Origin: an uncultured bacterium | GTDB taxonomy: Bacteria; Verrucomicrobiota; Kiritimatiellia; RFP12; UBA3636 | Assembly: GCA_902761575.1 (NCBI GenBank) | Contig: CACWKU010000001.1 | Coordinates: 22,435 to 86,434 of the forward strand | Reading direction: 5' to 3' | DNA: 64,000 nt | Part shown: piece after piece, positions 1 through 36,388 of the stretch | How positions within the stretch are numbered: the first letter of the stretch is position 1 | Layout: every line of letters begins with the position of its first letter | The notes under the pieces: generated by a model | The model's input: the letters and a program-made list of their open reading frames with translations, nothing else | Told to the model about the DNA's origin: nothing | The model's database searches: none | Position numbers and translations under genes: made by a program

Positions 1-2975
1 TAGGAGACGGCGTAGGACGTCGCGTTCGCCCCCTCGTCGTCGGTGCCCATCACGATCCCGGAGAGGGAGATCGTCGCCGTCGTGCCGTTCACCTCGACGG
101 CCGCGGATCCGATCGACGGATCGACGACCGTCGCCCCGCCCGCGCCGAGCTCGCGGACCTGGATGGCGTTGATGCAGGCGTTCCCGGAATACTCGATCGT
201 GAATTCTTCCGAGGCGCCGCTTGCCGTGAAGACGCCGACGAGCGAACTTCCGTATTCCCAGCCCGTTCCGCCGAACTTGACGGTCGTCGTGCCGTCCGGC
301 GCGGTGGCGGACTGCGTCGTATAAGTCTGGTTGAACGCAATGATCTGGACCAGGTACCGCTTTCCGCTCTCAAGGTTGTTCAACTGGATCTTCCGGCCTT
401 TGGGGTTCGCCCACCAGCAGTGTCCCAGCATATTCTTATAGTCGACATCGTCGATGCCGGACGGAGGAGTCGGGGTGGCGGATTGCGCCCCCGTCGTGGC
501 CTCCCATACGACGCAGTCCGCGTTGTTGATGAGGCCACTACTAGCAATGAACGCGACACCGTTGACCGTGTAGTTCCCAGCCGCGTAGGCATACTTAAGC
601 GTGCCGTCGGTTCGTATCGCGGCGCTCGTCGCGCCCAGCGCCTCGCCGGTCCAGCCCTCCTCGGCGGAACCGCCGCCACCGCCGCCCGACGTGCTGATGG
701 CGAACGAGGCGGTCTTGGACGCCGTCTTGCCCTTGTCGGTCGTGATCGTGACTTCGCAGGTGTAGGAACCGTCGGCGAGATCGGCGATCTGGAACGAGGC
801 CGAGGCGGCGGTCTGGTTCGCGAGCACCGCCACCGCGGCCCCGCCGTTCAGCGCGTAGGAGACCGCGTAGGACGTCGCGGCCGCGCCCTCGTCGTCCGTG
901 CCGAGCACGATGTCGGAGAGCGAGATCGTCGCGTTCGAGCTGACGACGCTGGCTGCCGCCGACCCGATCGACGGCGCGACGACCGGCGGCGGCGGCGTGC
1001 CGATCCGGAAGGAGACGGTCTTTTCCGCCGAGGTCTTGTTCTTGTCGGTCGTGATCGAGACCGCGCACGTATACTCGCCGTCGGCGAGGTTCGCGATGTC
1101 GAACGAAGCCGTCGCGGCGGCCTGGCCCGTGAGCGCCTGCACCGCGGCCGCGTCGCCCAGGCGATAGGAGACGGCGTAGGACGTCGCGTTCGTCCCCTCG
1201 TCGTCGGTGCCCATCACGACGCCGGCGAGCGAGATCGTCGCGGTCGAGCCGTTCGTCGAGACGGAGACGGAGCCGATCTTCGGCAGGACGACGACCGGCA
1301 CGCCGCTCTCGCCGAGGTCGCGGACCTGGATGCCGTTGATGCCGTAGTTGCCGTCGGACGTGATGGTGAACGTCTTGGTGGTCTCGGTGGCCGTGAAGGT
1401 TCCCGTCAGCGTGCCGCCGCAGGACCAGCCGTCGCCATAGACCTTGATGAAGTTCGGATCCCAGTACGACTCCTTGATCCAGACATGAGCCTTGCTGTCG
1501 CCGTTGTAGTTGCGGTAGCCGAAGATCTGGACGAGATAGCTGCGTCCGACCGTGAGGTTCTTGAGCGTCACCGCCTTGTCGCCCTGGTTCGCCCACCAGC
1601 AGCGGTCCAGGAGTTCATGGTAGGCACCGGAGACGCTGCTCGGGGCCGACGCGCCCGAGGTCTGGCTGTACGGCCAGGCGATATCGCCCGAGATGTTCGC
1701 GTTGTTGTTCCCGGCGGCCGCGAACGCAACGCCGTTGACCGTGCACGCCGCGGGCGCATACGCATACTCGAGCGTGCCGTCCGTGCGGATGGCGCTGTCG
1801 TCGGTCGGCAGCGGGCTCGCGTACCACGGCTCGGTCATCGTGAAGTCGAGCAGCGTCACGAGCTCCTTGTCGTCGGCCGTCGTGACGGTCACCTTGCAGG
1901 TATGGTCGCCGAGGGCGACGTTCGGGATCGCGAACGAAGCCCGGGTGCCCGTCTGGCCGGAAAGCGCGCGCGTCTTCGCCCCGCCGTCGAGCTCGTAGTC
2001 GATTGCGTAGGACGTGACGGCGTTCGCGTTCGCGTCCGTTCCGAGGTTGACGCCGAAGACCGTGATCGTCGCCGAGCCCGCGCCGTCCGCGTTCGGGGCG
2101 GCCTTGGCGTAGCCGACGGAAGGATCCGCCACGTGCGCCTGGCCGGCGGGAACCGAGAGATACTTGTGCATCGCGTTGGTCAGCGCAGGCTTCCAGAAAT
2201 CCGAATAGGTGAAGAATTCCGGATGGAGGCAGAGTCCCACGGCGTCGTAGCCGCCGTGGCCGCCCTCGCGGTAGCAGACCTTGTCGGGCATCGAATTCTG
2301 CTGGAGGTACTGGCTGCGGAGGTCCACCCAGAACACGCGCTTGTTGTCGACGAACTGGAGGATGTAGTCGTTGACTGCCTCGCTCATGGCCGTCACTTCG
2401 GCCGCTTCGAAGTACCTGCTGTCGAAGCTGTAGGGGAGGATCGGCATCAGGAGGATCTTCGCGTCCGGATGCTTCGTCGCCATCTCGCAGAGCATGAGCC
2501 GGATCGACTCGGCGACATCCTCGGCGCGATCGGCGTGCTCGTTGTGGTCGATGCACTTCTGGTGGCCGTTGTTGATGCCGACCATCAGCGTGAAGTACTT
2601 CGTGGTATAGCCGTCGAGCGCGCCGTTCCGGAGGCGCCACAGGAGGTTCTGGACGCGGTCGCTGCCGATGCCCATGTTGAACGCCGCGGCGTAGTTGAGG
2701 GGATCCCCGTCGAGGGCCAGGCTGGGATTGTTCCAGAAGTCGGTGATGGAGTCGCCAAACAGGACCACGTCGAAGTCCTTGCCCTGGCTGCCGCTGATGT
2801 CGGCGCTGAAGTGGTTCTTGTGGTAGTCGTCCGTGCGCTCCTTCGGCGTGCACGGCTCCGAGCTGGGGTCGGATCCCGGCACCTGGGCGCCGATCACGAT
2901 CGGATCGGCGGACGCGACAGTCCAGGCCATCGCAAGGATCGCCGCCGACAGGAAGTGGAGGAGCTTGAGTTTCAT
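1..2975 (-). CDS. Secreted multidomain SGNH/GDSL-type esterase, partial (3' end lies beyond the window start). Order: signal peptide, SGNH domain, Ig-like repeat, 'QVR' beta-sandwich module, 2 Ig-like repeats, Gly linker, second 'QVR' module, partial Ig-like repeat.
   Basis: The minus-strand frame is open from the ATG (2975-2973) to position 1. It is not in the supplied track because it has no stop in the window. Hand translation gives MKLKLLHFLSAAILAMAWTVASA (signal peptide), VVLFGDSITDFW and GINNG (SGNH blocks), ~95-aa repeats (..ATISLSGIVMGTDDEG..SYAVSY..), and modules ending INGIQVRDLGE and INAIQVRELGAGG. It is a paralog of 10964..12616 and 5249..10795. Confidence 0.85.
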   Translation of the reverse strand, partial: MKLKLLHFLSAAILAMAWTVASADPIVIGAQVPGSDPSSEPCTPKERTDDYHKNHFSADISGSQGKDFDVVLFGDSITDFWNNPSLALDGDPLNYAAAFNMGIGSDRVQNLLWRLRNGALDGYTTKYFTLMVGINNGHQKCIDHNEHADRAEDVAESIRLMLCEMATKHPDAKILLMPILPYSFDSRYFEAAEVTAMSEAVNDYILQFVDNKRVFWVDLRSQYLQQNSMPDKVCYREGGHGGYDAVGLCLHPEFFTYSDFWKPALTNAMHKYLSVPAGQAHVADPSVGYAKAAPNADGAGSATITVFGVNLGTDANANAVTSYAIDYELDGGAKTRALSGQTGTRASFAIPNVALGDHTCKVTVTTADDKELVTLLDFTMTEPWYASPLPTDDSAIRTDGTLEYAYAPAACTVNGVAFAAAGNNNANISGDIAWPYSQTSGASAPSSVSGAYHELLDRCWWANQGDKAVTLKNLTVGRSYLVQIFGYRNYNGDSKAHVWIKESYWDPNFIKVYGDGWSCGGTLTGTFTATETTKTFTITSDGNYGINGIQVRDLGESGVPVVVLPKIGSVSVSTNGSTATISLAGVVMGTDDEGTNATSYAVSYRLGDAAAVQALTGQAAATASFDIANLADGEYTCAVSITTDKNKTSAEKTVSFRIGTPPPPVVAPSIGSAAASVVSSNATISLSDIVLGTDDEGAAATSYAVSYALNGGAAVAVLANQTAASASFQIADLADGSYTCEVTITTDKGKTASKTASFAISTSGGGGGGSAEEGWTGEALGATSAAIRTDGTLKYAYAAGNYTVNGVAFIASSGLINNADCVVWEATTGAQSATPTPPSGIDDVDYKNMLGHCWWANPKGRKIQLNNLESGKRYLVQIIAFNQTYTTQSATAPDGTTTVKFGGTGWEYGSSLVGVFTASGASEEFTIEYSGNACINAIQVRELGAGGATVVDPSIGSAAVEVNGTTATISLSGIVMGTDDEGANATSYAVS

Positions 2976-5243: not shown

Positions 5244-5248
5244 GGGAT

Positions 5249-8200
5249 CTAGCGCGTCAGGATCGCCCGGTAGAAATGGTGCTGGTCCGTGGCGGGCTGC
5301 CACGGGCCGGAAAGCGCGTCGGCGCCGAAGACCGTCACGGTCCCGTTGTAGGTCCCGGCGATGGCCGGAACCGTGCCCGGATCGATTCCCGCGAAGCGGA
5401 ACGCGGACTTCGCCTCGTCGAGGCCGGCCACGGCGCAGTTCAGAAGGTAGGCCGCCGAAAGCGCGTTGTCGGGGTTCCCGTCCGCGTCGAAGGACATCGC
5501 GTTCACGTCCGCGCCGCCGAACGGCACGCCGTTCGCGCGCGCCCACTTCGAGAGCCTGCGCAGCTCCGCCGTCGTGGTGCCGGCCTCCGCGAAGGCGCCG
5601 CCCGTGAGGCCGAGGTCCGCCGGCGAGGTGGCGTCCGTGATCGCCGTGTCGGGGTCCTCGGGCCAGTCCTGGAAGCCGCCGCCGCCGGCCTCGCCGAGGT
5701 CTCGGACCTGGAGGGCGGCGACGTAGCGCGCGGCGCCCGATCCGCCCATCTTGAACGTGACCACATGCGACGATGATTCCGCCGTGAACGAACCGTACAC
5801 CGTCGCGCCGGACGAGCCGTTCCCGTTCTGGATGCTGACGGAGGGCAGATCGCCGATCGTGATGTAGGCGTTTCCATACGAGTTGCGGGCCAGGATCTGC
5901 AGGAGATACGCATGGCCGGCCGTCAATCCCGAAAGCGTCAGATGGATCTCGCCCATGCCCGTATCCACGCCGAAGTCCCAGACCGTACCGAGGAGCGAGC
6001 TGCTCCCGGCGCTCACGTCCGCGCCGACGAAGGTCGGAGCAAAGGAAATGCTCGCCCCGGACAGGTTGGCGCCGGCCTGGAACGTCACGCCGCCCAGGGT
6101 CCGGTCCGTCGAGGCCCCGCGATAGGCGTAGAGAAGCGTGCCGTCCGTCCGGAGCATCGTTTCGTCCGACGCGCTCAGCGTCGCGACGGTCCAGCCCTCC
6201 ACGACGGAACCGCCGCCGCCCGACGTGTTGACGGCGAACGAGACGGACTTCGTGGCCGTCTTGCCCTTGTCGGTCGTGACCGTGACTGCGCAGGCGTAGG
6301 AGCCGTCGGCGAGGTTCTCGATGGAGAACGAGGCGGTGTCGTCGGTCTGGTTCGCGAGCGCCGCGACGGCGGTCCCGCCGTTCAGCGCGTAGGAGACGGA
6401 GTAGGACGACGCGGCCGCGCCCGCGTCGTCCGTTCCGAGCACGATGCCGGAGAGCGTGACCGTCGCGTTCGAGCCTGCAACATTGGCGGTCGCCGCGGCG
6501 ATCGACGGCGCGATGACCGGCGGCGGAGGCGTGCCGATCCGGAAGGAGACCGACTTCGCCGCCGAGGTCTTGCCCTTGTCGGTCGCGATCGTGACGACGC
6601 AAGTGTAGTCGCCGTCGGCGAGGTTCTCGATGGCGAACGACGCCGTCGCGCCGGTCTGGTTCTGCAGCGCCGTGACGGCGGTCCCGCCGTTCAGCGCGTA
6701 GGAGACGGAATAGGAAGTGGCGTCAGTCCCGGCATCGTCCGTCCCCATCACGATGCCGGAGAGAAAAAGCGACGCGGTGCTCCCGTCCGGAGTCGCGGTC
6801 ACGCTGCCGATCGACGGCTCGACGACCGTCGCCCCGCCGCCGCCGCCACCCCCGCCGCCGCCGTCGAGCTCGCGGACCTGGACGGCGTTGAACGGCATCT
6901 TGCCGCTACCGCCCTGATAGGTGATCGTCACGTCCTTCGTCGCGCCGACGGCCGTGAAGACGCCCGTGACGAGCGCGCCGTACTTCCCGCTCGCCTCGTT
7001 GTCGCCGTGGATGTGCACGGGGTCGCACCCGTTCGCGGAGACGGTCGTCGTGTTGTTCCAGTAGTTGTGCGCCAGGAACTGGACGAGGTAGATCTTCCCG
7101 CCTTCGAGATTCGAGAGCGTCAGCGTGACCGTGTGCGTGCCTGATCCGTCGCTGTCCCAGTACCAGCCGTTGCCGAGGGAGAGGCCGAGGTTGCCGCCGA
7201 CGCTTTCGTTCATGAAGTCGCCGGTGAAGCCGTCGATGTTGGGTGTGAAGGAGATCTTCGGAGGATTCTCCGAGGACTGGAGGTTCACGGACCGCTCGAA
7301 CGGGATTCCGTTGATGGTCCCGCCGTTGCAGACATAGCCGTAGACGAACGTGCCCTCCGTGCTGAATGCGGTGCCGCCCGCGTCCATGTATCCGGAGGTC
7401 CAGACATCGGAGACGGCGCTCGTGTTGACGTAGAAGACGACGGACTTCGTCTTCGCTCGCCCCTTGTCCGTCGTCATCGTGACCTCGCACGTGTGGTTGC
7501 CGTCCGCGAGGCCCTCGAGCGTGAACGAGCAGTCTTCCGACGTCTGGTCGGAGAGCGCCGTCACGGCCGCCGCGCCGTCGAGCTTGTAGGCGACGGAATA
7601 CTTCGTCGCGGGAACGGAGTTGGCGTCCGTGCCGAGGACGACGCCCGTGAGCGAGATCGTCGCGTTCGAACCGCTCGGCGCCGCGGCGAGCTCCGCGATG
7701 CGGGGATACTTCGGCCGGTTGTTCGTCGCGCGGTTCTGCGCGAACATCCAGACGAATCGGTGGTTCGGCGCGCCCGCCGTGACGTCGTCCTCCGTGGCGT
7801 AGCACGTCGTCCAGGCGTCGTGGCTGTTGTTCTCGAGCTTCTCGAAGATCACGTCCGATCCGAGCGCCCGGAGCGCCGTGACGATGCCCTCGGTCTGCTC
7901 GACGGGAATGGTCGGGTCTCCGCGGTTGTGCACGGCCAGGACCGGGACGTGCGCGATGTCGGCCGCGCAGGCGGGATCGCCGCCGCCGCAGCACGGCATC
8001 GCCGCGGCGAAGAAGTCGGGCCGGCGGCAGATCGCGTCCCAGGTCCCGTGCCCGCCCATCGAGAGGCCGGTGACGTAGATGCGGTCGGCGTCGACGTCCG
8101 CCATCGCGGCGTAGGCGTCGAGAAGGTCGAACACCGCCTGGAGCGCCGCGGACGGCTTGTCCTGGAACGTGCAGGTGGTCGAGTTCATGGAGAACTCCGC

Positions 8201-10795
8201 CCACTTGACGTCGTTCGGGCACTGGGGGACGAGAAGCTTGTAGCCGCTTGGGCCGCCCGCGCCGTCGAGGTAGCGCTGAATGTTCGACATCTCGTTGATC
8301 GTGAACGAATTGTCGACGCCGCACTGGCCGTATCCGTGAAGGAACACGACGACGGGAACCTTGCCGCCGTTCGGATCGGCCTTCGCCGCGACGCGGTAGG
8401 GGAGCTGAAGCTTGTTGGACGCGATGAAGGTCTTCTTGACGAATTCGCCGGTCAGGTCGTCGCCGCCGCCACCACCGCCGCCGCCGCCACCGCCGAGCTC
8501 GCGGAGCTGAATGGCCTTGACGAGGCATTTGCTGCCGGAGGTGGCGAACGTGACGGTCACGGTCTCCTGCGCGCCCGTCGCCTCGAACACGCGCGAAATG
8601 ACGGCGCCGCACTTGTAGTCGTTCTGCTTGGTGGCCTCGAACGGAACGAGATCGCCGGCGGAGAGCGTCGTCGAGGAATTGTTCCAGTGGTTGGCGGCGA
8701 GAATCTGGACCAGGTACTTCTTCCCGGCCGTGAGCCCCTGGAGGGTGAAGGCAAGGTCCAGCGAGGAGTCGCTCTTCTCCCACACCCAGCCGCCGTTGAA
8801 CACCGGGTTGTTCTCCGTCCAGCCCGCGCCGGCGTACGACGAGGGCGAGACCGTCGCCTGGTCCGAGCCCGGGAAGCCCGCGGAGAACGAGACGCCGTTG
8901 ACAGTGTGCCCGGTGAAGCCGCGCGCGAAGACCTGCGTGCCGTCGCTGCGGAACGCCGAGCCCGTCGCGTCCATCGGCGCGACCTTCCAGCCGACGGCGT
9001 CGGCCTGGGAATCGATCTGGAACTTGACGCGCTTCACGGCGGACATCACGACGCCGTCCGACGAAACCCAGACCGCGCAGGTGTGCCAGCCGTCGGCGAG
9101 GTCCGCGAGCTCGAACGAGGCCGAGGAGCCCGTCTCCGCCGCGGGAAGCGCCGTCTCGGCGCCCGCGTCGAGCTTGTAGGAGACCGCGAAGGACGCAGCG
9201 GCCGCGCCGCTCGCGTCCGTGCCCTTCGTCACGTTCGAAAGCGAGATCGTCGCCGACGTGCCGCTGACCTGCGCGGCGGCGGAGCCGATCGTCGGAAGCA
9301 CGACGGGCGAGGCGCCGGCCGTCGCCATCGCGCTGGCGATCGCGGGCGCGAGGATCTCCTCGTAGGCCTTCGTGGTCAGGTGCAGGAACTGGTCGGGATA
9401 GTCGCCGTTGCCCTGGAGGTACATCTCGCCGCGGTACGTCCCGTCGGCGTTCAGGAACTGGCTGCGGACGTCGACGAGGATCACGCGCTCTCCGTCCGCG
9501 AACGTCCGGATGATCTCGTTCGCCGCCTCGTTGTTGGCGTAGTGCGCGGCGCCCTTCGCGCCGTTCTGCGCGTTCGTGTAGCCGTAGGGGATGATCGGCA
9601 TCAGGAGGACCTTCGACTCGGGATGCTTCGCGAGGATGAGGTCGAGCACGGCGCGCACGCCCGCGGCGATGTCCGCGGGATCCTCGCTCGGATTCTTCCC
9701 GATCGTGTTGTTCGTGCCGATCAGCAGGTTGAAGAACTTCGTCGTGTAGCCGTCGATGCAGCCGCTCTCGAGGCGCCACAGCAGGTTCTCCACGAAGTCG
9801 CCGGTCCGGCCGAGGTTCAGGACGTTGGCGGCGAGTCCGTTCATGGACGAGGCGCTGTTCCCCTCCATCCACTTCTGAGTGAGGGAGTCGCCGAGGAGGA
9901 CGAGATCGAAGCTCCGGCCGTTTTCGCCGATGAGCTTCAGGTCGTCCTCGAACTTCCGCCAGAAGGCGTCCTGCAGATCGGCGTTGACCGCCGTCGGGAA
10001 CGTCGCGATGCGGTCGATCTCGGGACGCGCCGTCGCCACGAGGTCGGCGGGCATCGCGGAGCCGCCCGCCGCGGCGGCGACGTAGGGCGCGACCGCCTGG
10101 GCCCAGACCTCGTAGCCGGCCGCGTTCAGCGTGACGCGGTCGGCATTGAAGAGCGAGGTCTTCAGCGTGTGGTGGTCGTTCTCGAGGAAGAGGTCCGACA
10201 TGTCCACCCAGGCGCATCCCTTCTTCTGCGCGTACGCGCGAACGTCGATGTTCAGGCGGTCGTTGCGCGGACGCACGGGATCGGACTCGTCGAGCCCGCG
10301 CGGAAGCACCGCCTGCACGACGACCTTGGACGCGCCAACGCTTGCGACGAGGTCGTCGATGATTTCGCGCACGCCCAGGTACGTCTTCCCCTCCGGCTCC
10401 TCCTTCTCGGTGTAGATCGCGGCGTTGTTGCCGCCGACCATCAGGAAGACGACCTTGGGGCTGCCGAGCTCGCCGTTCCGGATGCGCCAGAGGACGTTCT
10501 CCGTGCAGTCGCCGGCGAAGCCGAGGTTGAACATTGTCCTGTCGCCGGTGAAGTAGGTCGCGAGCGCGCCCGCGCCCGTCGTCTCCCAGTCCTGCGTCAG
10601 CTCGTCGCCGAGGAAGACGATGTCCTTCCTGATGGAACTGTCGGCCACCGCCGCGACCTTCTCGGCGTGGCGCGCCGTCCACCAGGCGTCGAGCCGCGAG
10701 GCGGGGGTGTTCGCGCGGATGGACACCGCGGGTGCGTTCACAGCGGCCATCGCGAGGATCGCCGCGGACAGGAACGTGAAGGAGTGGGGTTTCAT
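5249..10795 (-). CDS. Giant secreted multi-esterase (1848 aa): 2 SGNH domains, an alpha/beta (CE1/PHB-depolymerase-like) esterase, 4 Ig-like repeats, 3 'QVR' modules, poly-Gly linkers and a conserved C-terminal tail
   Basis: Track ORF 5249..10888 trimmed to the ATG at 10795 (MKPHSFTFLSAAILAMAAVNAPA signal peptide). Motifs: IVFLGDELTQDW and LVLLGDSLTQKW/GTNN (SGNH); VVVFLHGYGQCG and GLSMGGHGTW (Ser-hydrolase elbow). Gly runs of 9-11 residues. Modules end KAIQLRELG, NAVQVRELD and ALQVRDLGE. The tail ends HHFYRAILTR. Confidence 0.9.
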   Translation of the reverse strand: MKPHSFTFLSAAILAMAAVNAPAVSIRANTPASRLDAWWTARHAEKVAAVADSSIRKDIVFLGDELTQDWETTGAGALATYFTGDRTMFNLGFAGDCTENVLWRIRNGELGSPKVVFLMVGGNNAAIYTEKEEPEGKTYLGVREIIDDLVASVGASKVVVQAVLPRGLDESDPVRPRNDRLNIDVRAYAQKKGCAWVDMSDLFLENDHHTLKTSLFNADRVTLNAAGYEVWAQAVAPYVAAAAGGSAMPADLVATARPEIDRIATFPTAVNADLQDAFWRKFEDDLKLIGENGRSFDLVLLGDSLTQKWMEGNSASSMNGLAANVLNLGRTGDFVENLLWRLESGCIDGYTTKFFNLLIGTNNTIGKNPSEDPADIAAGVRAVLDLILAKHPESKVLLMPIIPYGYTNAQNGAKGAAHYANNEAANEIIRTFADGERVILVDVRSQFLNADGTYRGEMYLQGNGDYPDQFLHLTTKAYEEILAPAIASAMATAGASPVVLPTIGSAAAQVSGTSATISLSNVTKGTDASGAAAASFAVSYKLDAGAETALPAAETGSSASFELADLADGWHTCAVWVSSDGVVMSAVKRVKFQIDSQADAVGWKVAPMDATGSAFRSDGTQVFARGFTGHTVNGVSFSAGFPGSDQATVSPSSYAGAGWTENNPVFNGGWVWEKSDSSLDLAFTLQGLTAGKKYLVQILAANHWNNSSTTLSAGDLVPFEATKQNDYKCGAVISRVFEATGAQETVTVTFATSGSKCLVKAIQLRELGGGGGGGGGGGDDLTGEFVKKTFIASNKLQLPYRVAAKADPNGGKVPVVVFLHGYGQCGVDNSFTINEMSNIQRYLDGAGGPSGYKLLVPQCPNDVKWAEFSMNSTTCTFQDKPSAALQAVFDLLDAYAAMADVDADRIYVTGLSMGGHGTWDAICRRPDFFAAAMPCCGGGDPACAADIAHVPVLAVHNRGDPTIPVEQTEGIVTALRALGSDVIFEKLENNSHDAWTTCYATEDDVTAGAPNHRFVWMFAQNRATNNRPKYPRIAELAAAPSGSNATISLTGVVLGTDANSVPATKYSVAYKLDGAAAVTALSDQTSEDCSFTLEGLADGNHTCEVTMTTDKGRAKTKSVVFYVNTSAVSDVWTSGYMDAGGTAFSTEGTFVYGYVCNGGTINGIPFERSVNLQSSENPPKISFTPNIDGFTGDFMNESVGGNLGLSLGNGWYWDSDGSGTHTVTLTLSNLEGGKIYLVQFLAHNYWNNTTTVSANGCDPVHIHGDNEASGKYGALVTGVFTAVGATKDVTITYQGGSGKMPFNAVQVRELDGGGGGGGGGGATVVEPSIGSVTATPDGSTASLFLSGIVMGTDDAGTDATSYSVSYALNGGTAVTALQNQTGATASFAIENLADGDYTCVVTIATDKGKTSAAKSVSFRIGTPPPPVIAPSIAAATANVAGSNATVTLSGIVLGTDDAGAAASSYSVSYALNGGTAVAALANQTDDTASFSIENLADGSYACAVTVTTDKGKTATKSVSFAVNTSGGGGSVVEGWTVATLSASDETMLRTDGTLLYAYRGASTDRTLGGVTFQAGANLSGASISFAPTFVGADVSAGSSSLLGTVWDFGVDTGMGEIHLTLSGLTAGHAYLLQILARNSYGNAYITIGDLPSVSIQNGNGSSGATVYGSFTAESSSHVVTFKMGGSGAARYVAALQVRDLGEAGGGGFQDWPEDPDTAITDATSPADLGLTGGAFAEAGTTTAELRRLSKWARANGVPFGGADVNAMSFDADGNPDNALSAAYLLNCAVAGLDEAKSAFRFAGIDPGTVPAIAGTYNGTVTVFGADALSGPWQPATDQHHFYRAILTR

Positions 10796-10883
10796 CGTGA
10801 GCCTCGTGCTTTGGTTGCGTGCCCTTTCCGCACGCGTGCCGAATCCGGCCACGCGATGGCGATGGCTCCGTTCGACACCGCGA

Positions 10884-10963: not shown

Positions 10964-12616
10964 CTAGCGCGTCAGGTCGCGGACCTGGATGGCGTTGAGG
11001 GCGTAGTTGTTGTCGGCGCAGACGGTGATCGTCTTCGTGGGCGCGGTCGCCGTGAAGGTTCCCGTGAGCACGCCGCCGCGGGCCCAGCCGTCGCCGCAGA
11101 CCTTGATGTAGTTCGTGTCCCGGAACGACTCCTTGATCCAGACGTGCGACTTCTCGTAGCCGTTGAAGTCGCGGAAGCCGACGATCTGGACGAGGTAGCG
11201 GTGGCCGGGCACGAGGTTCCGGAGCGTCACCTCCTTCTCGCCCGCGTTCGCCCACCAGCAGTGGGCCAGCAGGTCGCGGAGCCCGCCGCCCACGACGTCC
11301 GCCGGGACCTGCGAGCCGGAGGTCGGCCCGTAGGGCCAGGCGATGTTCGCGTCGTCGATGGCGCCGTTCGCGGCGGCGAAGGGAACGGAATGGGCCGTGT
11401 AGGTGCCGCTCCCGACGGCGTACGCGCAGACGAGCGTCCCGTCCGTCCGAATCGCGCCGCCGTCGGCGGAGAGCGCCTCGCCCCGCCAGTCCTCGGTCAT
11501 CGTGAAGTCGACCGAGGTCGAGAGCTCCCTGCCGTCCGCGGTCGTGACGGTCACCTTGCAGGTGTGCGCGCCGAGCGCGACGTCCGGGATCGTGAACGAG
11601 TTGCGCGTCTTCGTCTGGTTCGAGAGGACCGGCTTCCTCGGCCCGCCGTCGAGCTCGTAGGCGACCGAGTAGGACGCGACGGGAACGGCCTTCGCGTCCG
11701 TCCCGAGGAAGATGCCGCGGACCGTGATCGTCGCGGTCCCCGGGCCGTCCGCGTTCGGCGCGGCCGACGCGTAGCCGAGCGAGGGGTCCGCCACGTGGGG
11801 CCGGCCCGCGGGGATCGCGCGGTACTTCTGCATCGCGGCCGTCAGGGCGGGCTTCCAGATGGCGGGATAGGCGGAGTCGGCCGGATGCAGGCAGTGCCCC
11901 TTCGAATCGTAGACGCCGGCCTTGTAGCAGCTCTCCTTGCAGGAGGCGTCGGGGTTGAGGAACGCGCCGCGCAGGTCCACCCAGAACACGCGACTGTTGT
12001 CGACGAACCCCAGGATGATGTCGTTGACGTCCTCGTTCACGTTGCGGACGTCGAGCGCCGCGTAGTACCGGCTCTCGAACCCGTAGGGCAGGATCGGCAT
12101 CAGGAGGATCTTCGACTCGGGGTGCTTCGCCACGATCTCGCGCAGGATGAGCCGGATCGACTCGGCGACGTCCTCCGCGCGGTCGCAGGGGTCGTCGTGG
12201 TTGTCGACGTGCTTCTGGTAGCCGTTGTTCACGCCGATCATCAGCGTGAAGTACTCCGCCTGGTAGCCGTCGAGCGCGCCGTTCCGGACGCGCCAGAGCA
12301 GGTTCTGCGCGCGGTCGCTGCCGATGCCCATGTTGATCGTCCTGCCGGCATCCCCGTCGAAGCTCAGGTTCGAGTAGACCCAGAAGTCGGTGATGGAGTC
12401 GCCGAAGAGGACGGCGTCGAACGACTTGCCCTGGCTCTGGCTGCGGTCGTCTTCGAAGTGGCGAACGCCGTACTCGTCCGTGCGACGCGCCGGCGTGCAC
12501 GGCTCCGAATCCGGGTTTGAGCCCGGCACGGGGACGTCGAGCGGTCCGCCGAACGCGGCGGTCGCGGCGACCGCGAGGATCGCCGAGGAGAGGAGCGGGA
12601 GGGCGTGGAGCTTCAT
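10964..12616 (-). CDS. Secreted SGNH/GDSL esterase with one Ig-like repeat and one 'QVR' module (550 aa)
   Basis: Track ORF. Signal peptide MKLHALPLLSSAILAVAATAAFG. Motifs AVLFGDSITDFW and GVNNG. Ends ..NYALNAIQVRDLTR. Collinear with the N-terminal 550 aa of the gene at 1..2975. Confidence 0.9.
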   Translation of the reverse strand: MKLHALPLLSSAILAVAATAAFGGPLDVPVPGSNPDSEPCTPARRTDEYGVRHFEDDRSQSQGKSFDAVLFGDSITDFWVYSNLSFDGDAGRTINMGIGSDRAQNLLWRVRNGALDGYQAEYFTLMIGVNNGYQKHVDNHDDPCDRAEDVAESIRLILREIVAKHPESKILLMPILPYGFESRYYAALDVRNVNEDVNDIILGFVDNSRVFWVDLRGAFLNPDASCKESCYKAGVYDSKGHCLHPADSAYPAIWKPALTAAMQKYRAIPAGRPHVADPSLGYASAAPNADGPGTATITVRGIFLGTDAKAVPVASYSVAYELDGGPRKPVLSNQTKTRNSFTIPDVALGAHTCKVTVTTADGRELSTSVDFTMTEDWRGEALSADGGAIRTDGTLVCAYAVGSGTYTAHSVPFAAANGAIDDANIAWPYGPTSGSQVPADVVGGGLRDLLAHCWWANAGEKEVTLRNLVPGHRYLVQIVGFRDFNGYEKSHVWIKESFRDTNYIKVCGDGWARGGVLTGTFTATAPTKTITVCADNNYALNAIQVRDLTR

Positions 12617-12690
12617 CGTGTGCCTCGTGTTGCTTGGGTTGTCGCCGCCGGGTCCGCCGCGATGGCGGGGACGCCGTCCGACAAGCCGGC

Positions 12691-12803: not shown

Positions 12804-14384
12804 TCAGCGGGTCAGGATCGCCTGGAAGAAGCGGTGCTCGGCCGTGGCGGGCGCCCACGCGCCGCCGAGGTCGTCCGCGCCGAGGACCGTCACGCTGCCG
12901 TTGAGGCCGGAGGCGTCGATGGACGGCACCGTCCCGGGCGTGAACTCCGTGAAGCGGAACGCGGCCTTCCTCGCGTCCAGGTCGCCGACGCCGCAGCCGA
13001 GCAGGTACGCCGTCGTGAGATCGGTGTCCGGGTTGCCCGATTCGTCGAAGGCCATCGCGTTCACGTCCGCGCCGGCGTAGCGCACGCCGTTCGCGCTCGC
13101 CCACTTCGAGAGCCTGCGCAGCTCCGCCGTCGTGGTGGCGGACTCCGCGAAGCCGCCCGCGACGAGGCCCAGGTCGATCGGCCGCATCGCGTCCGTGATC
13201 TGCGCGTCGGGATCCTCGGGCCAGTCGAGAAACGGCGGAACGGTCGGACCGCCCTCGTCGGGAAGGCCCGTCAGCGTCAGCGCGCAGAGGCGGGGGACGG
13301 TCACCGCCCTAAAGGTCATGCCGTAGACCGTCTTCTCCTTGGTCTCGCCGCCGTCCGAGACGAGGAAGACGGCGCGAGTGCCGTCACCGAGGATCGGTCC
13401 GAGCGCGATGCCCTCGTAGACGATGATCTGCTCAAGCCCCCCGCCCCGAAACTCCAGCAGGGCGCTTCCCTTCGAGACCGCCTCGTAAGCGTCCGTCTCC
13501 GTCAGCGCGGCAATCTCCGAGACTTCCGTCGCCGCGGCAAGGGCGGCTGTCGTGATCCGGTAGACGCGACAGCGCCCGAAGGTCGTGGTGCTCACCTCGC
13601 GCTCGAGGGTCAACAGCGACCCGTCCGGCAGCGCGCACAGTCCGGAGAGGCCGCACTGGGAGAACTGGGCGAGCTGCGAGATGAGGACCGACGAGCACGG
13701 GTCGCACAGGTAGGCCCATTCGCCGGCCGACTCCCAGTCAGCCTCCGCCGACTCGCGCGTGAAGCGCGTCAGGCGTACGGCGGTGCTCACGGTGCTGTTG
13801 CCGCTCGAGGAATCGCCGTCGCACGTGAGCGCCTGCTCGTTGGCCGTCCACATCGTGAGCCCATCCGGCGAAACCGTGAGCGCCTCGAGCGAAAGGTTGG
13901 ACCGTTTGTAGTTGCGCTGGACGGCGGGAACCGGGGCGGTCCGCCCCGTGGCGACGCCGTCGAGGCCGTATTCGGCGATCGTCGGGGAGGCTTCGTCGCT
14001 GATCCACAGCGCTCCGGTCTGCGGGTCGAGGGCGATCCCCTCCGCGTCGGTGAGCGTCCCGGGCGTGAACTCCGCGCCGATCGACTGGGCGGCGATGGCG
14101 CCGGAGGCGGGATTGATCGCGAACGAAACCGGATAGACCTTCGACTTGTTGTCGCCCGCGTGGTCGCGCAGCACGTAGAAGACGCCGGCTCGCCCGGACC
14201 AGGCGATGCCGCCGCATCCGTCCTTCTCGAAGGAATACTCGGCGACCTTCTCGATCGAAAGCGAGTAGTCGGAGTCCGGACCGGCGACGATCTCTCGGCT
14301 CGCGGCGTGCGCGAGGGAGGCGCCCAGGACGATGGCGAGCGCGACGGCGGGAATGGCATGCATGGCGGGACTTGGGCTGGACAT
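12804..14384 (-). CDS. Secreted phytase-like/esterase-like beta-propeller protein with a conserved C-terminal tail (526 aa)
   Basis: Track ORF. Signal peptide ..AIPAVALAIVLGASLAHAAS. Propeller-style repeats (DAEGIALDPQTGALWISDE, LEALTVSPDGLTMWTANE, LSGLCALPDGSLLTLERE) resemble the 'esterase-like activity of phytase' family as I recall it. The last ~140 aa are homologous to the tail of 5249..10795 (..TTTAELRRLSKWA.ANGV..FFQAILTR). An alternative start exists at 14363. Confidence 0.75.
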   Translation of the reverse strand: MSSPSPAMHAIPAVALAIVLGASLAHAASREIVAGPDSDYSLSIEKVAEYSFEKDGCGGIAWSGRAGVFYVLRDHAGDNKSKVYPVSFAINPASGAIAAQSIGAEFTPGTLTDAEGIALDPQTGALWISDEASPTIAEYGLDGVATGRTAPVPAVQRNYKRSNLSLEALTVSPDGLTMWTANEQALTCDGDSSSGNSTVSTAVRLTRFTRESAEADWESAGEWAYLCDPCSSVLISQLAQFSQCGLSGLCALPDGSLLTLEREVSTTTFGRCRVYRITTAALAAATEVSEIAALTETDAYEAVSKGSALLEFRGGGLEQIIVYEGIALGPILGDGTRAVFLVSDGGETKEKTVYGMTFRAVTVPRLCALTLTGLPDEGGPTVPPFLDWPEDPDAQITDAMRPIDLGLVAGGFAESATTTAELRRLSKWASANGVRYAGADVNAMAFDESGNPDTDLTTAYLLGCGVGDLDARKAAFRFTEFTPGTVPSIDASGLNGSVTVLGADDLGGAWAPATAEHRFFQAILTR

Positions 14385-16236: not shown

Positions 16237-17158
16237 CCCGAAGCGGGAACCCGGCCGACTCGCGCAGGAGCGCGGTGATGCGCGCGGAGACGGCGTCCTC
16301 CGGCGCGCGGAGGCGCAGGACGCGCGCGTTGCCCGCCGGATCGGGCGCGAAGGGCGTGGAGAGGTCCGGCGCCACGCGGACGCGCCCCGGCTCGCCAAGC
16401 CCGTAGCACTCGTTCTCGCCGTGGACCGCGAGGTCGACGGTGACCGGGTCCCAGCTCGGGCGCGTCATCCCGGGGCCGCAGTAGCGCCGGAACGCCTCGG
16501 CGAGCGGATGCGCGGCGCAGTCCGGCGGCAGGCCGGAGAGGTCGGTGACCACCTTCTCGCCGCTCTCGAACCCGACGAAGACGATCGGGCCGTCCCACGC
16601 GTCGAGGAAGCGGCGCGTGGCCTCCGGGCGTTCGCGGACGTTGGTCTCCGCGTAGCCCGCGCACCGTCCGAAGCCGCCCGCCATCGCCCAGACGGCGCGC
16701 ACCTTGCGTCGGAAGAGCGCGGGGTCCTCCGCGAGGACCTCGTCGAGCGTGTTGAAGAAGCCGATCGAGATCACGTCGACGGAGCCGTCCGCCGCCTCCG
16801 CGAAGACGCGGCGGTAGAGCTCGCGCGCGGCGCACGACGTGGCGGGGTGCGCACCCCGCCACAATGCCGCGAGCGCGGCGAGATACGGGGACTCGTTGCC
16901 GCTCGGCGGAGGCGGGTCGTCCGTGACGCCGACGGGGACGTCCTGCAGGCCCCACGCGGCGAGGACCGCCTTCACCGCGGGCGCGGCGAGCGGCGTCTCG
17001 ACGTTGCACGAGACGCCGCCGATGCGGAACGCGCCGGCGTGGCGGCGCGACTCGGCGCAAAGCAGCGCGAGCGCGGCGACGTCGTCGACGTCGCCGCAGA
17101 AGTCCGTCTCGAGAACGACGGTCGCGCCCGTGCGGGCGGCGAGGGGCTCGGGCGTCAT
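16226..17158 (-). CDS. Inosine-uridine-preferring nucleoside hydrolase (IUNH)-like protein (310 aa)
   Basis: C-terminal part of track ORF 16226..19435, trimmed to the ATG at 17158. That ATG overlaps the upstream stop as ATGA. The N-terminal Asp cluster VVLETDFCGDVDDVAAL is IUNH-like. No signal peptide. Contains the 24-nt palindrome at 16839-16862. Its 3' end overlaps the convergent gene 14533..16236 by 11 nt. Confidence 0.75.
   Translation of the reverse strand: MTPEPLAARTGATVVLETDFCGDVDDVAALALLCAESRRHAGAFRIGGVSCNVETPLAAPAVKAVLAAWGLQDVPVGVTDDPPPPSGNESPYLAALAALWRGAHPATSCAARELYRRVFAEAADGSVDVISIGFFNTLDEVLAEDPALFRRKVRAVWAMAGGFGRCAGYAETNVRERPEATRRFLDAWDGPIVFVGFESGEKVVTDLSGLPPDCAAHPLAEAFRRYCGPGMTRPSWDPVTVDLAVHGENECYGLGEPGRVRVAPDLSTPFAPDPAGNARVLRLRAPEDAVSARITALLRESAGFPLRATC
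16839..16862. repeat. Perfect 24-nt palindrome GTGGCGGGGTGCGCACCCCGCCAC inside the nucleoside-hydrolase-like CDS
   Basis: Read directly from the sequence. It encodes ..LWRGAHPATS.. in the gene frame. Confidence 0.9.
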
Positions 17159-19524
17159 CGCAGAACCAGGATGGTCGGGGGGTCGCCGTAGTGTTCGAAG
17201 CACCCGACGTCGGGGCCGCCGCCGAAGTCGCGTGGCCGCTTGCCGAGGAAGTCGCGCGCGCCGGCCATCCAGTCGCAGAGAACGCCGGCATCCCTCAGCG
17301 GCGACTTCGCGCGGGGAGACCAGTCTCCCTTGTCCGGCTTCGCGAAACGGACGCCCCTTTCGTCGCAGGCCGCCGTGATCCGCGCGGACGCGCCCGACGG
17401 ATCGCGCGCGAGGACCTCCGCGACGGCGTTGGCGCTTCCGCCCTCGACGACCGTGCTCGCGATCCGGACCACGTTGGTCAGGGACGGGCAGTTGTCGACG
17501 GGGGACTCGCACCAGTAGAGGCCGGGCGCGCCCCTGTACTTCCGGCCCCAGGGCCAGCCGTCGGTCTTCGGGAGGTTGTCCCAGAACACGCAGTTGGTGA
17601 TCGCGGGGACCGACGAGTCGTTCTGGAAGTAGACGAGGCCTCCGACGTTGCGGACGAAGGTGCAGTTCGCGAGGGCGGGGAAGCTGCCCAGCTTGAACGG
17701 GCACCGGTTGTCGACGAAGAGCGTGCTGGTGATCTTGGCGACGGACGCGTCCGGCGACCGGAAGAAGGACGGCAGTTGGCTTCCGCTCGACGAGGTGTTG
17801 ATCGTCGTCGCGGTGTCCGAAACCACGCATCGGTCGAGCCGGGCGCGGCCGTAGAAGAGCCCGGCGTTCGAGGAATCGAGCACGTTGCCGGCGATCGTGC
17901 AGGCAACGAGGCGGACGGCTCCGTTCGGGCAGTCGCCGTTGTTGGAGCCGAACGTCATTCCGGCCAGCCCGCCGCCGTCCGAGCGGAGCGTCTGGTTCCG
18001 GAAGACGCAGTTCGTAACGGTCGTGTGGCTCGTCGCGGCGACGGATGTCTGCCCCCGGCTGGCGGTCCGCTCGACGTAGCAGGCGTCGAACGCCGAATTC
18101 TCGATCCAGAGCGAACCGTAGATCGCGCCGCCTGCGTTCCACATATCGGTCCAGGACGTTCCGCACCGGACGAACTCGCATCCGTCGACGATGCCGTATT
18201 CGGACCGCGCGTCGAAGTCCGTGTGCGTTTCGTCGGGGGCGTAGATCGCGCCGCCGAAGCGCGCCGTGCAGTCGACGAAATCGCAGTCGCGGATGGTCGC
18301 CGTGTTGACCGCCGCCGAACCGTCGAGCCGGATCGCGCCGCCCTTGTCCGAGCTGCCGTTCTTGAAGGTGACGCCCCGGACGGTGAAGCCGGACGCGGAC
18401 ACCCGGAGCAGGTTGGCGGACGAATCGCCGTCGAGGATCGTCTTGCCCTTGCCCTCGCGCGAGACGACCGTCAGGTTCGCCGCGGTGACGTCGATCGCCG
18501 ACGTCGCCGTGTAGATGCCGCGGTTCACGACGACCGTCGCGCCGTTGGTCGCGCCCTCGATCTCCGCCTTGAGCCGGGCGAAGTCCCCGACCGTCGCGAA
18601 GATCTCGAAGGAAACGCCCGCCGGCAGAGAGGTCTTGCCCTTGTCGCTTTCGATCGTGACCGTGCAGACGTAGTCGCCGTCGGCGAGGTTCGGGATGGCG
18701 AACTCGGCCGTCTCGCCGGTCTGGTCGCGGAGGACAGTCACCGGATCGCCGCCGTTCAGGCTGTACGAGACGGAATACTTCGTCGCGGGGTTCCCGTCCA
18801 CGTCCGTGCCCATCCCGACGTCCGCGAGCGCGATGGTCGCCGTCCGGCGGAGCGTGGAGGCGGACAGGGAGCCGATCGTCGGATGGGAGCCCGAGATGAT
18901 CTTGCGGACCTGGACCGCGTTGAAGAAGGCGGGTGCGCCCTCGTATTCGAACGTGAACGACTCGGTCCCGTTCTCGGCCGTGAACGTTCCGACGAGGGAG
19001 CCTCCGTACTGGAAGAAATAGCCTTGCGGCCGGGCGGAACACGAATGGTCCGGAGCCCAGACTTCGGTGCCGGCGGCGCCGGTGTTGGAGACGTCCGTGC
19101 AGTGGAGAATCAACTGCACGGCGTAGGTGGCTCCCGGCGTGAGCTTCTTGAGCTGAAGTTCGTGGTCGCCGACGCTCGACCACCATCCGTGCGACAGCAG
19201 GTTGGAGTAGGCGCCCGAAACACCCGGGGGAGGGACGTTCTCGTCCCCGTGCCAATGCCACTCGCCCGAAAAGCCGAAATCGGGGCATCCGGCGACGTCC
19301 TGCCGCCCGACGAACGGAACGCCGTTGACCGCGTTGGTGACGGCGGCGCCGCCGTTCGCCTGGCACCAGGCGTACGCAAGCGTTCCGTTCGTGATGATCG
19401 AATTGCCGGACTGGCTCATCGTGACCTCCTGCCACGTGACGTACGTCGCGGCGCCGGCGACGGGAACGAACAGAGATCCCGAGAGGATGGCGATCAAAAG
19501 TGTCAGAAGGGTCTTGGATTTCAT
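17155..19524 (-). CDS. Secreted right-handed beta-helix (pectate-lyase-fold) protein with an N-terminal 'QVR' module and an Ig-like repeat (789 aa)
   Basis: Track ORF 17155..20343 trimmed to the ATG at 19524 (MKSKTLLTLLIAILSGSLFVPVAGA signal peptide). The module ends FFNAVQVRKI. Parallel beta-helix style repeats are present (..VRGVTFKNG.., ..IRDCDFVDC.., ..VTNCVFRN.., ..ITNCVFWDN..). The C-terminus ..DVGCFEH.. resembles the repeat ends in 27174..33467. Confidence 0.85.
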   Translation of the reverse strand: MKSKTLLTLLIAILSGSLFVPVAGAATYVTWQEVTMSQSGNSIITNGTLAYAWCQANGGAAVTNAVNGVPFVGRQDVAGCPDFGFSGEWHWHGDENVPPPGVSGAYSNLLSHGWWSSVGDHELQLKKLTPGATYAVQLILHCTDVSNTGAAGTEVWAPDHSCSARPQGYFFQYGGSLVGTFTAENGTESFTFEYEGAPAFFNAVQVRKIISGSHPTIGSLSASTLRRTATIALADVGMGTDVDGNPATKYSVSYSLNGGDPVTVLRDQTGETAEFAIPNLADGDYVCTVTIESDKGKTSLPAGVSFEIFATVGDFARLKAEIEGATNGATVVVNRGIYTATSAIDVTAANLTVVSREGKGKTILDGDSSANLLRVSASGFTVRGVTFKNGSSDKGGAIRLDGSAAVNTATIRDCDFVDCTARFGGAIYAPDETHTDFDARSEYGIVDGCEFVRCGTSWTDMWNAGGAIYGSLWIENSAFDACYVERTASRGQTSVAATSHTTVTNCVFRNQTLRSDGGGLAGMTFGSNNGDCPNGAVRLVACTIAGNVLDSSNAGLFYGRARLDRCVVSDTATTINTSSSGSQLPSFFRSPDASVAKITSTLFVDNRCPFKLGSFPALANCTFVRNVGGLVYFQNDSSVPAITNCVFWDNLPKTDGWPWGRKYRGAPGLYWCESPVDNCPSLTNVVRIASTVVEGGSANAVAEVLARDPSGASARITAACDERGVRFAKPDKGDWSPRAKSPLRDAGVLCDWMAGARDFLGKRPRDFGGGPDVGCFEHYGDPPTILVLR

Positions 19525-35737: not shown

Positions 35738-36388
35738 TTACTTGACGGTAATGACCGCCGGCTTCCCCGCCGGTTCGTCCGACGGAAGCTCGCGCACCTG
35801 GATGGCGTTGATCAAAGCCTGGCCGCTGTACGAGATCGTGAACTCCTCCGTCGTGGCTTCGGCGGTGAACTGGCAGATCAGCGAACCGCCGTATTCCCAT
35901 CCGGTTCCGGCGAACTTGGCAACCGTCGTTCGGTCCGGCGCGGTCGCCGACTGCGTCGTGTAGTCGTTGCGGAAGGCGACCATCTGGACCAGATACCGCT
36001 TCCCGGATTCCAGATTCTTCAACGCGATCGGCCGGTCCTTGCCGTTTGCCCACCAGCCATTCGACAGCAGATCCTTGTAATCGCCCGACTCGGTGTCGGA
36101 GGGAGGCGACGAAACGGCGTTGCCGGCTCCGCCCGAGGCTTCCCAGACGACGCAGTCCGCCGTATTGACGATTTTGTCGCCGACACCGGCGAACGAAACG
36201 CCGTTGACCGTGTAGTTTCCGCGGGCGTAGGCGTACTTGAGCGTTCCGTCCGTGCGGATCGACGTGCTGCTCGCCGTCAGTGGCGTAGCAGACCACGTGA
36301 CGTCCGTTGCCGCCCCGGCGGGGGCGGCGACGAGCGCGGCGGCGGCCGCGAGGGCGAGGGCGGCGGTTTTCCTGACGATGCGATTCAT
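35738..36388 (-). CDS. Free-standing secreted 'QVR' module protein (216 aa)
   Basis: C-terminal part of track ORF 35738..40231, trimmed to the ATG at 36388 (MNRIVRKTAALALAAAAALVAAPAGA signal peptide). The whole mature protein is one copy of the recurrent module (..SSTSIRTDGTLKYAYARGNYTVNGVSF..GKRYLVQMVAF..LINAIQVRELPS). Confidence 0.85.
   Translation of the reverse strand: MNRIVRKTAALALAAAAALVAAPAGAATDVTWSATPLTASSTSIRTDGTLKYAYARGNYTVNGVSFAGVGDKIVNTADCVVWEASGGAGNAVSSPPSDTESGDYKDLLSNGWWANGKDRPIALKNLESGKRYLVQMVAFRNDYTTQSATAPDRTTVAKFAGTGWEYGGSLICQFTAEATTEEFTISYSGQALINAIQVRELPSDEPAGKPAVITVK

Follow-up and report, generated by a model that had tools for sequence, protein, structure and literature searches.

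Why do two otherwise unrelated secreted proteins of an uncultured bacterium end in the same domain, and what might that domain do for them? The question is raised by a 64,000-nucleotide stretch of DNA, here called the window (positions 22,435 to 86,434 of contig CACWKU010000001.1 in assembly GCA_902761575.1; G+C content ~69%), in which a giant esterase and a phytase-like protein of a rumen-type member of the Kiritimatiellia carry closely similar tails of about 140 residues. The Kiritimatiellia are abundant, almost uncultured glycan degraders of the rumen and gut, and the export routes noted for them are Sec, Tat and the type II secretion system (T2SS) only, in one well-described isolate (PMC5148204). 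Kiritimatiella, the cultured reference of the phylum, is a diderm with these three systems (PMC5148204), and hence exported enzymes need both a route and a way to stay cell-associated. Here, we report that the tail belongs to a previously undescribed family of C-terminal domains on secreted proteins, which may target its carriers to the cell surface or hold them there. Lineage-specific C-terminal domains on secreted proteins are a known kind of element; this family is new. It is invisible to Pfam, NCBIfam and UniProt-based resources, and it provides a concrete handle on the export and cell association of very large Kiritimatiellia enzymes. The tail profile can also be used to catalogue the surface and secreted proteome of Kiritimatiellia metagenome-assembled genomes (MAGs), and as bait for a partner or machinery.

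Two secreted proteins with a common C-terminal domain

In a codon-usage gene call of the window, many consecutive genes on the minus strand encode secreted proteins, most of them carbohydrate-active. The two tail-bearing genes and their parts, including the matches to the hidden Markov model (HMM) of the family and the predicted local distance difference test (pLDDT) score of the modelled domain, are as follows.

5249..10795, minus strand: cargo 1, secreted multidomain esterase of 1848 amino acids (Pfam scan, gene call)
5249-5251, minus strand: stop codon of copy 1 (translation)
5252..5674, minus strand: tail domain copy 1, the last 141 residues of the giant esterase (FQDWPEDPD...FYRAILTR; family HMM, domain E=1.1e-51)
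5252-5665, minus strand: the 138-residue domain of copy 1 as modelled (AlphaFold2, pLDDT 96.8)
5675..5695, minus strand: GEAGGGG linker between the last esterase module and tail copy 1 (translation, alignment)
5696-5716, minus strand: ALQVRDL, the end of the last esterase module before the linker (motif coordinates)
12804..14363, minus strand: cargo 2, secreted phytase-like (PF13449) protein of 519 amino acids (Pfam E=3.2e-41)
12804-12806, minus strand: stop codon of copy 2 (translation)
12807..13232, minus strand: tail domain copy 2, the last 142 residues of the phytase-like protein (FLDWPEDPD...FFQAILTR; family HMM, domain E=8e-46)

The esterase begins with a Sec signal peptide (MKPHSFTFLSAAILAMAAVNAPAVS) and contains two GDSL domains, one DLH/Abhydrolase_2 esterase domain and Ig-like (Big_13) domains in a Pfam scan, together with three copies of a ~170-residue module ending in A[ILV]Q[VL]R[DE]L, a Gly linker and then the tail. 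The phytase-like protein is simpler, with a Sec signal peptide (MHAIPAVALAIVLGASLAHA) and a Pro/Gly linker that leads into the tail.

The original prediction, made from the letters of the window and its translated reading frames, held that the ~140-residue ends of these two proteins are homologous and that the likeness is visible in the DNA. Both statements hold. BLASTP of the last ~150 residues aligns the tails with 93/142 identities (66%; E=9e-65), in agreement with the signature string given in that prediction, and the codon-aligned DNA is 77.8% identical, with a repeat search independently pairing 5356-5655 with 12914-13213 at 78% identity. The same codon is used at 79.6% of the identical tail residues, compared with 61% expected from local codon usage, and this excess suggests that the two tails arose by relatively recent duplication or gene conversion. 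The similarity begins abruptly after the GEAGGGG linker of the esterase and the PDEGGPTVPP linker of the phytase-like protein, and upstream of the linkers the two proteins show no similarity (E>0.1). A run of the family HMM across the called genes and all six reading frames detects no further copy in the window.

The giant esterase is also one of three paralogous GDSL-esterase genes (3..2975, 5249..10795 and 10964..12616). Across the start codon, the signal peptide and ~15 nucleotides upstream, their DNA is 77-83% identical (2923-2988, 10743-10808 and 12564-12629), and long collinear repeats also link the bodies of the genes at 3..2975 and 10964..12616. The trio is a recently expanded gene family with the tail on one member only. 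The ~170-residue module occurs three times in the giant esterase (5696-5716, 6866-6886 and 8495-8515) and once in each of three other secreted proteins (10973-10993, 35786-35806 and 147-167), and is usually followed by a poly-Gly linker. It gives only a sub-threshold CE2_N match in Pfam and is probably a separate binding or beta-sandwich module.

A family of single, terminal domains

An exhaustive HMMER search of 1.84 billion protein cluster representatives, using a profile built from six fragments, retrieves 254 representatives at E<=1e-3, 104 at E<=1e-10 and 17 at E<=1e-30; k-mer-indexed protein searches gave short fragments only (6 matches, or 16 with a profile). Both window copies match the family profile, each at the very C-terminus of its protein. 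Among the best 150 of the 254 representatives, to which the counts of position and copy number refer, the domain envelope reaches the last residue in 95 and lies within 12 residues of the C-terminus in 142; the exceptions are fragments or proteins with short Pro/Ala/acidic extensions. None of these 150 has a second or internal full copy, and an isolated extra helical N-half occurs in two.

The family consensus reads (DWP.DP.TEIT)..TTPADLGIT.GAFA.....EL.KL..WA.A.GV....VN.M.F...G.P....EEAYLLNCAP....V..AKAAFKF..I.PG..P.I....YNG.V.I.GA..L..G.W......KFFKA.LTK-COOH. The consensus W is invariant, and conservation reaches >=85-95% for each of AYLLNC, F.F, NG and FFKA.L. The most conserved part of the family is the last strand, F[FY][KR]A.L.[KR], which hardly varies. 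Because some members lack most of the N-terminal part, the core of the domain consists of L..WA, AYLLNC and the beta half.

We considered the conserved Cys of AYLLNC as a catalytic or lipidation site and set this aside, given that most tails have a single Cys, that V or T takes its place in ~10% of members and that the preceding N is D or G in ~26%. In another assembly, an esterase open reading frame (ORF; L002:1-1773) ends just past the linker (…GGGGFQD*), and a second ORF of 92 residues (P0004) covers most of the tail; a frameshift, a pseudogene or an assembly error could explain the split.

Fold and search for known relatives

An AlphaFold2 model based on a 51-sequence alignment reaches a pLDDT of 96.8 and a predicted template modelling score (pTM) of 0.88, with all five models at 94.7 or above, and supersedes an earlier, poor model from a 6-sequence alignment (pLDDT 67). 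A model of this confidence indicates that the tail is a real globular domain, predicted to be an autonomously folding alpha/beta unit of ~138 residues. Short helices at 5-8 and 15-18 and a long one at 32-44 are followed by helices at 52-55, 68-74 and 79-88 and then by a small sheet, whose long strands lie at 109-115 and 131-137. On this model the domain is laid out as a helical 'ADLGI...L..WA...VN.M.F' unit and a helix plus beta-sheet unit, 'EAYLLNC - AAFKF - PG..P.I - YNG.V.I.G - W - FFKA.L.K-COOH'. The domain is acidic, with a median isoelectric point (pI) of 4.6 and a median net charge of -7. No transmembrane (TM) segment is seen: the maximum Kyte-Doolittle score over 19 residues is 0.85 and 0.77 for the two window tails and at most 1.51 for 97 family tails.

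The original prediction had placed the ends of two further window proteins, a 2097-residue protein and a GLUG protein, beside the two tails, and had named a match to a known, functionally defined domain unrelated to sorting as one possible refutation. We found none. Searches of Pfam and NCBIfam at E<=10 gave no relevant match for any of the four tails or for seven other C-termini, PDB sequence profiles gave nothing below E=0.05 for the tail, and Foldseek of the tail model against the PDB returned a best E of 3.5. The literature on sorting, secretion or exosortases in Kiritimatiellota yielded nothing on the tail domain. Hence, the family is previously undescribed, and compared with the PDB its fold is probably new too.

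Cargo and signal peptides

Carriers range from ~190 to 2739 residues. They include GDSL esterases, phytase-like proteins, proteins with Y_phosphatase3 and a Gly-rich domain, LTD plus CotH kinase plus PA14 proteins, DUF4838 proteins, PPC/Calx-beta/Flg_new giants and many proteins without any Pfam or NCBIfam domain. A Sec-type signal peptide is found by a signal-peptide heuristic in 98 of the 111 family proteins of at least 400 residues; the remaining 13 are N-terminally truncated calls or have obvious signal peptides just under the threshold, and no carrier of cytoplasmic type was seen among the 111. Going by these sequences, essentially all complete family members appear to be Sec signal-peptide proteins. 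The expectation of a common C-terminal module on unrelated secreted cargo, associated with signal peptides, is therefore borne out across a family of 254 representatives, with the tail terminal and single in the best 150 and its cargo diverse.

A large share of the family is a paralogous group of ~500-residue proteins that begin with MKQLKFMLAAATAIGLATAAQA, end in FFKAVLTK and have neither a Pfam domain nor a catalytic domain. Their genes sit on short contigs or at contig ends in different rumen metagenomes, and we compared their flanks at the following places.

L009:120-420, L010:30-330, L011, L012:9780-10080, L013 and L014: flanks of ~500-residue genes (upstream and downstream sequence)

The common flanks comprise an A-tract with a TTGCA...TATGAT promoter-like box and a conserved hairpin in the 5' untranslated region (TCGGCCCTCGTGAGGGGCGGA). 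The signal peptide and a GC-hairpin terminator are conserved too, and the middles of the genes differ. Because the promoter-like box, hairpin, signal peptide and terminator are conserved and the middles variable, we infer an abundant, variable family of secreted or surface proteins that is apparently highly expressed.

Two further carriers are of interest in their own right. P0007, a protein of 1651 residues from an ENA metagenome, combines the esterase/Ig/A[IL]QVR[DE]L-module architecture with a phytase-like domain and one tail, and judging from this architecture is effectively a fusion of the two tail-bearing genes of the window. P0133, a tail-bearing LTD/CotH-kinase protein of 1830 residues, lies within a cluster for surface-polymer biosynthesis (L018:788-14338), where its neighbours include a PEP (phosphoenolpyruvate) mutase/CTP-transferase, a glycerophosphotransferase fused to a YidC-like domain, FkbH, an acyl carrier protein and DegT.

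Organisms that carry the tail

A scan of one genome per GTDB species, with a closer alignment as query, finds six tail loci, all of them in MAGs labelled Kiritimatiellia/Kiritimatiellae, 'uncultured Verrucomicrobia' or unclassified rumen RUG bins. One of the six, the RUG13889 copy, is 95% identical, and a different bin has two on a single 11-kb contig. A scan of JGI metagenomes adds one locus, and the remaining members were found in ENA, Logan or JGI assemblies. Among the sources is the goat abomasum bin RGIG1497, and the labels STEW19, SHIW14 and SRR8736xx look like ruminant gut data sets. As far as seen, the family is confined to gut and rumen Kiritimatiellia. All of the 20 members that were looked up occur in metagenome assemblies only, which is why neither Pfam nor NCBIfam has a model of the tail.

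A proposed role at the cell surface

We propose, at a little under an even chance, that the tail targets exported proteins to the cell surface or holds them there. Carriers would be synthesised with a Sec signal peptide that takes them across the inner membrane. Joined to any cargo through a flexible Gly/Pro linker, and always the last and single domain of its kind, the tail would then provide a cargo-independent step after Sec export, either recognition for passage to the surface or non-covalent retention, the latter by binding an envelope component such as lipopolysaccharide (LPS) or exopolysaccharide, or a surface receptor protein. The tail itself does not appear from its sequence to be a membrane anchor, given that it has no TM helix and no lipobox. 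Outer-membrane export, surface retention and a partner or machinery are inferred by analogy with known systems.

By function, the closest parallels would be the C-terminal domains (CTDs) of the type IX secretion system (T9SS) and the S-layer homology (SLH) modules, although the tail matches the profile of neither. The T9SS CTD of Bacteroidota (PF18962 / TIGR04183) is likewise a folded domain and not a peptide motif; it is single, sits at the extreme C-terminus of unrelated Sec-exported enzymes and adhesins, has expanded within one lineage, and its last beta-strand ends in hydrophobic residues plus Lys. In contrast to the tail, it has an all-beta (Ig-like sandwich) fold of ~80-100 residues, and its cargo is known to undergo PorU-type processing and attachment to A-type LPS (A-LPS), neither of which is known for tail proteins. 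None of the four tails or the other secreted C-termini matches the T9SS CTD profiles in Pfam or NCBIfam at E<=10, and no gene for PorK/L/M/N, Sov or PorU/V lies in the window. We know of no T9SS in the host phylum. SLH (PF00395) resembles the tail as one conserved terminal module on both abundant variable surface proteins and cell-associated exo-enzymes, a sharing paralleled here by the ~500-residue family together with the esterase and phytase-like cargo. However, SLH modules come in triplets, usually at the N- or C-terminus, bind pyruvylated secondary cell-wall polymer and belong mostly to monoderms, and the tail shows no SLH profile match at E<=10 and no similarity of fold.

The original prediction had also drawn on the PEP-CTERM/exosortase and LPXTG/sortase systems, in which a common C-terminal element occurs on many signal-peptide proteins of one genome. 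As to the kind of signal, this analogy fails: those signals are ~25-35 residues long and combine a motif with a TM helix and a basic cluster, whereas the tail is an acidic globular domain of 138 residues that has no TM segment, no such tripartite signal and no match to an NCBIfam sorting signal.

Several observations weigh against a role in surface targeting or retention. As already remarked in the original prediction, no cognate machinery is found among the domain annotations of the window's genes, and neither a candidate machinery gene nor a candidate partner gene lies within its 64 kb; the gene neighbourhoods of nine family members on other contigs likewise show no machinery and no neighbour that recurs. 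About one-third of members extend 1-12 residues beyond the last strand, and a few extend further, which means that the domain does not need a free C-terminal carboxylate in a fixed position. Most of the conserved residues belong to the hydrophobic core, with no obvious recognition motif among them, and the acidity of the tail disfavours simple electrostatic binding to anionic LPS. Finally, the RUG13889 copy (L003:3380-3420, compared with window 5180-5330) has a deletion at the microhomology CACCA[T/G]TTC[T/G]AC that takes out the last strand of the tail with its stop codon, as well as ~20 codons from the start of the alpha-galactosidase gene downstream, and so fuses the two genes in frame; this may be a real variant or an assembly collapse or artefact.

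Among the other explanations, the one that fares best, though we consider it unlikely, is that the tail is a lectin-like or carbohydrate-binding module (CBM) that tethers enzymes to plant or host glycans and not to the producing cell. C-terminal CBMs on Gly/Pro linkers are common, and both window cargos belong, with their neighbours, to a cluster of the polysaccharide-utilisation type made up of esterases or carbohydrate-active enzymes. However, the domain is never tandem or internal in the 150 proteins, it also sits on CotH kinases, Tyr-phosphatases, adhesin-like giants and the non-catalytic ~500-residue proteins, and its conserved aromatics look like core positions.

An improbable explanation would have the tail act like a dockerin that plugs enzymes into a scaffold, as in cellulosome-like extracellular multi-enzyme complexes. 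A type I dockerin (PF00404) is, like the tail, a single, linker-joined, non-catalytic C-terminal module on diverse glycan enzymes of gut anaerobes, and a strict one tail per protein on many different enzymes of a rumen fibre or glycan degrader would fit such a scheme. The tail differs in having no duplicated Ca-binding loops, no DxDxDG-type repeats in its consensus, no cohesin-like partner and no Pfam match to PF00404 at E<=10. In addition, neither the window nor the loci showed a protein with repeats of a candidate receptor module, and carriers extend to kinases, phosphatases and non-enzymes, among which the abundant ~500-residue family would be an odd passenger for an enzyme complex.

Extended tails, short endings and further alternatives

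The original prediction extended the logic of the two tails to the ends of the 2097-residue and GLUG proteins, as a common terminal 'FFR' pattern. This extension stands only in part, for one region of the former.

27198..27362, minus strand: possible distant relative of the beta half, residues 2036-2090 (DALSRFLADILVPGDEPEISW...SRFFR) of the 2097-residue FGE-sulfatase/beta-helix protein (hhalign)

Neither end is significantly similar to the two tails in BLAST (E>0.1) or HMMER (E=0.33 for the 2097-residue protein, 3.5 for GLUG). In hhalign, the last ~50 residues of the 2097-residue protein (DALSRFLADILVPGDEPEISW...RVYTIEGK...VW...SRFFR) align in register with domain positions 84-133 at a score of 25.0 (P=6.5e-4, probability 28%), whereas 200 shuffles reach at most 21.4 and the other C-termini of the window at most 18.0. 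Only two homologues of this end were retrieved, and hence no deep profile is available for it. By normal criteria it is not a family member, and we regard it as a possible distant relative of the beta half only, on the strength of this alignment. The GLUG end, which gives no sensible MAFFT alignment with that of the 2097-residue protein, shows no relation to the tail except a 9-residue 'FDEDGNP' stretch (hhalign probability 3%), which is a coincidence.

The end of the 2097-residue protein represents here an uncharacterised C-terminal module that occurs on large proteins of the Planctomycetota-Verrucomicrobiota-Chlamydiota (PVC) superphylum, 'E[FY]xAG[LT][ND]P...S.F...W...FFRV'. This module shares with the beta half of the tail the order helix, strand, PG..P.I, strand, W and FF[RK] strand, and the weak in-register match of the 2097-residue end is a further likeness; unlike the tail, it lacks the helical N-half and the AYLLNC motif, and the match is marginal. 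A more specific form of the surface-targeting proposal, which we find doubtful, is that the tail is the recognition or attachment domain of an unrecognised display or secretion pathway of gut Kiritimatiellia, similar in function to the T9SS CTD and of a new fold, that this pathway displays the highly expressed, hypervariable ~500-residue family and exo-enzymes, and that the beta half may elaborate a wider PVC 'FFR' module.

The same endings could be read differently, with the true signal being a short terminal beta-strand plus a basic residue (F-F-[KR]-x-Phi-x-[KR], TIIIVK, VITVK, TILVLR) common to all secreted proteins of the window, including the 2097-residue and GLUG proteins. We consider this highly improbable. 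The last strand is indeed the most conserved part of the family, the 2097-residue tail is weakly in register with it, and T9SS CTDs reportedly end in a Phi-Phi-Phi-K strand (Phi, hydrophobic residue) whose last residues matter. Short endings of this kind had been pointed out in the original prediction and are present, but a terminal K or R is not significantly enriched, with 8/13 signal-peptide proteins compared with 6/18 others in a small sample (Fisher p=0.16). Furthermore, the GLUG tail is unrelated, VYRIK (also listed there) and VRDLTR are merely the last strands of other paralogous domains, and extensions of 5-12 residues after the strand are tolerated in some members. A lead on the short hydrophobic-plus-basic endings comes from the C-terminus of the protein at 17155..19524 (minus strand), where a sub-threshold match to the choice-of-anchor Q domain (NF041518; 17155-17517; E=0.014, 15.6 bits compared with a cut-off of 25) stops 12 residues short of the C-terminus, with ...DPPTILVLR right after it. 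Such domains (Haft's NCBIfam families) normally stand before C-terminal sorting signals.

It is also very unlikely that the tail lacks a cargo-independent function and is a cap that stabilises its carriers or helps them to fold, carried around a single lineage by domain shuffling. Such a cap would account for the dominance of core residues in the conservation, for a family that is lineage-restricted and rare (254 of 1.84 billion representatives) and for the excess of identical codons and the esterase-phytase fusion P0007, both signs of recent shuffling or gene conversion. It would not lead one to expect a tail so strongly conserved on unrelated cargo, strictly terminal and single, and confined to signal-peptide proteins. 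An RNA or opposite-strand explanation of the tails was rejected: no Rfam family matches anywhere in the window, and the plus-strand ORFs that overlap the tails lack the third-codon-position G+C (GC3) signature of real genes and are the usual high-GC artefacts.

Other proteins of the window

Two large secreted paralogues without a Pfam domain, of 1109 and 940 residues (36598-39927 and 43645-46467, minus strand), have an end of their own in common, '...VEVLYENRTL...F.D.F.G..RH.YRI', and a homologue of theirs adjoins the tail-bearing gene in L001 (2841-6152). An 871-residue protein (50410-53025, minus strand) has a signal peptide and an extracellular solute-binding domain (SBP_bac_1) that is apparently fused to a permease domain (BPD_transp_1), which would make it an unusual fused component of an ATP-binding cassette (ABC) importer.

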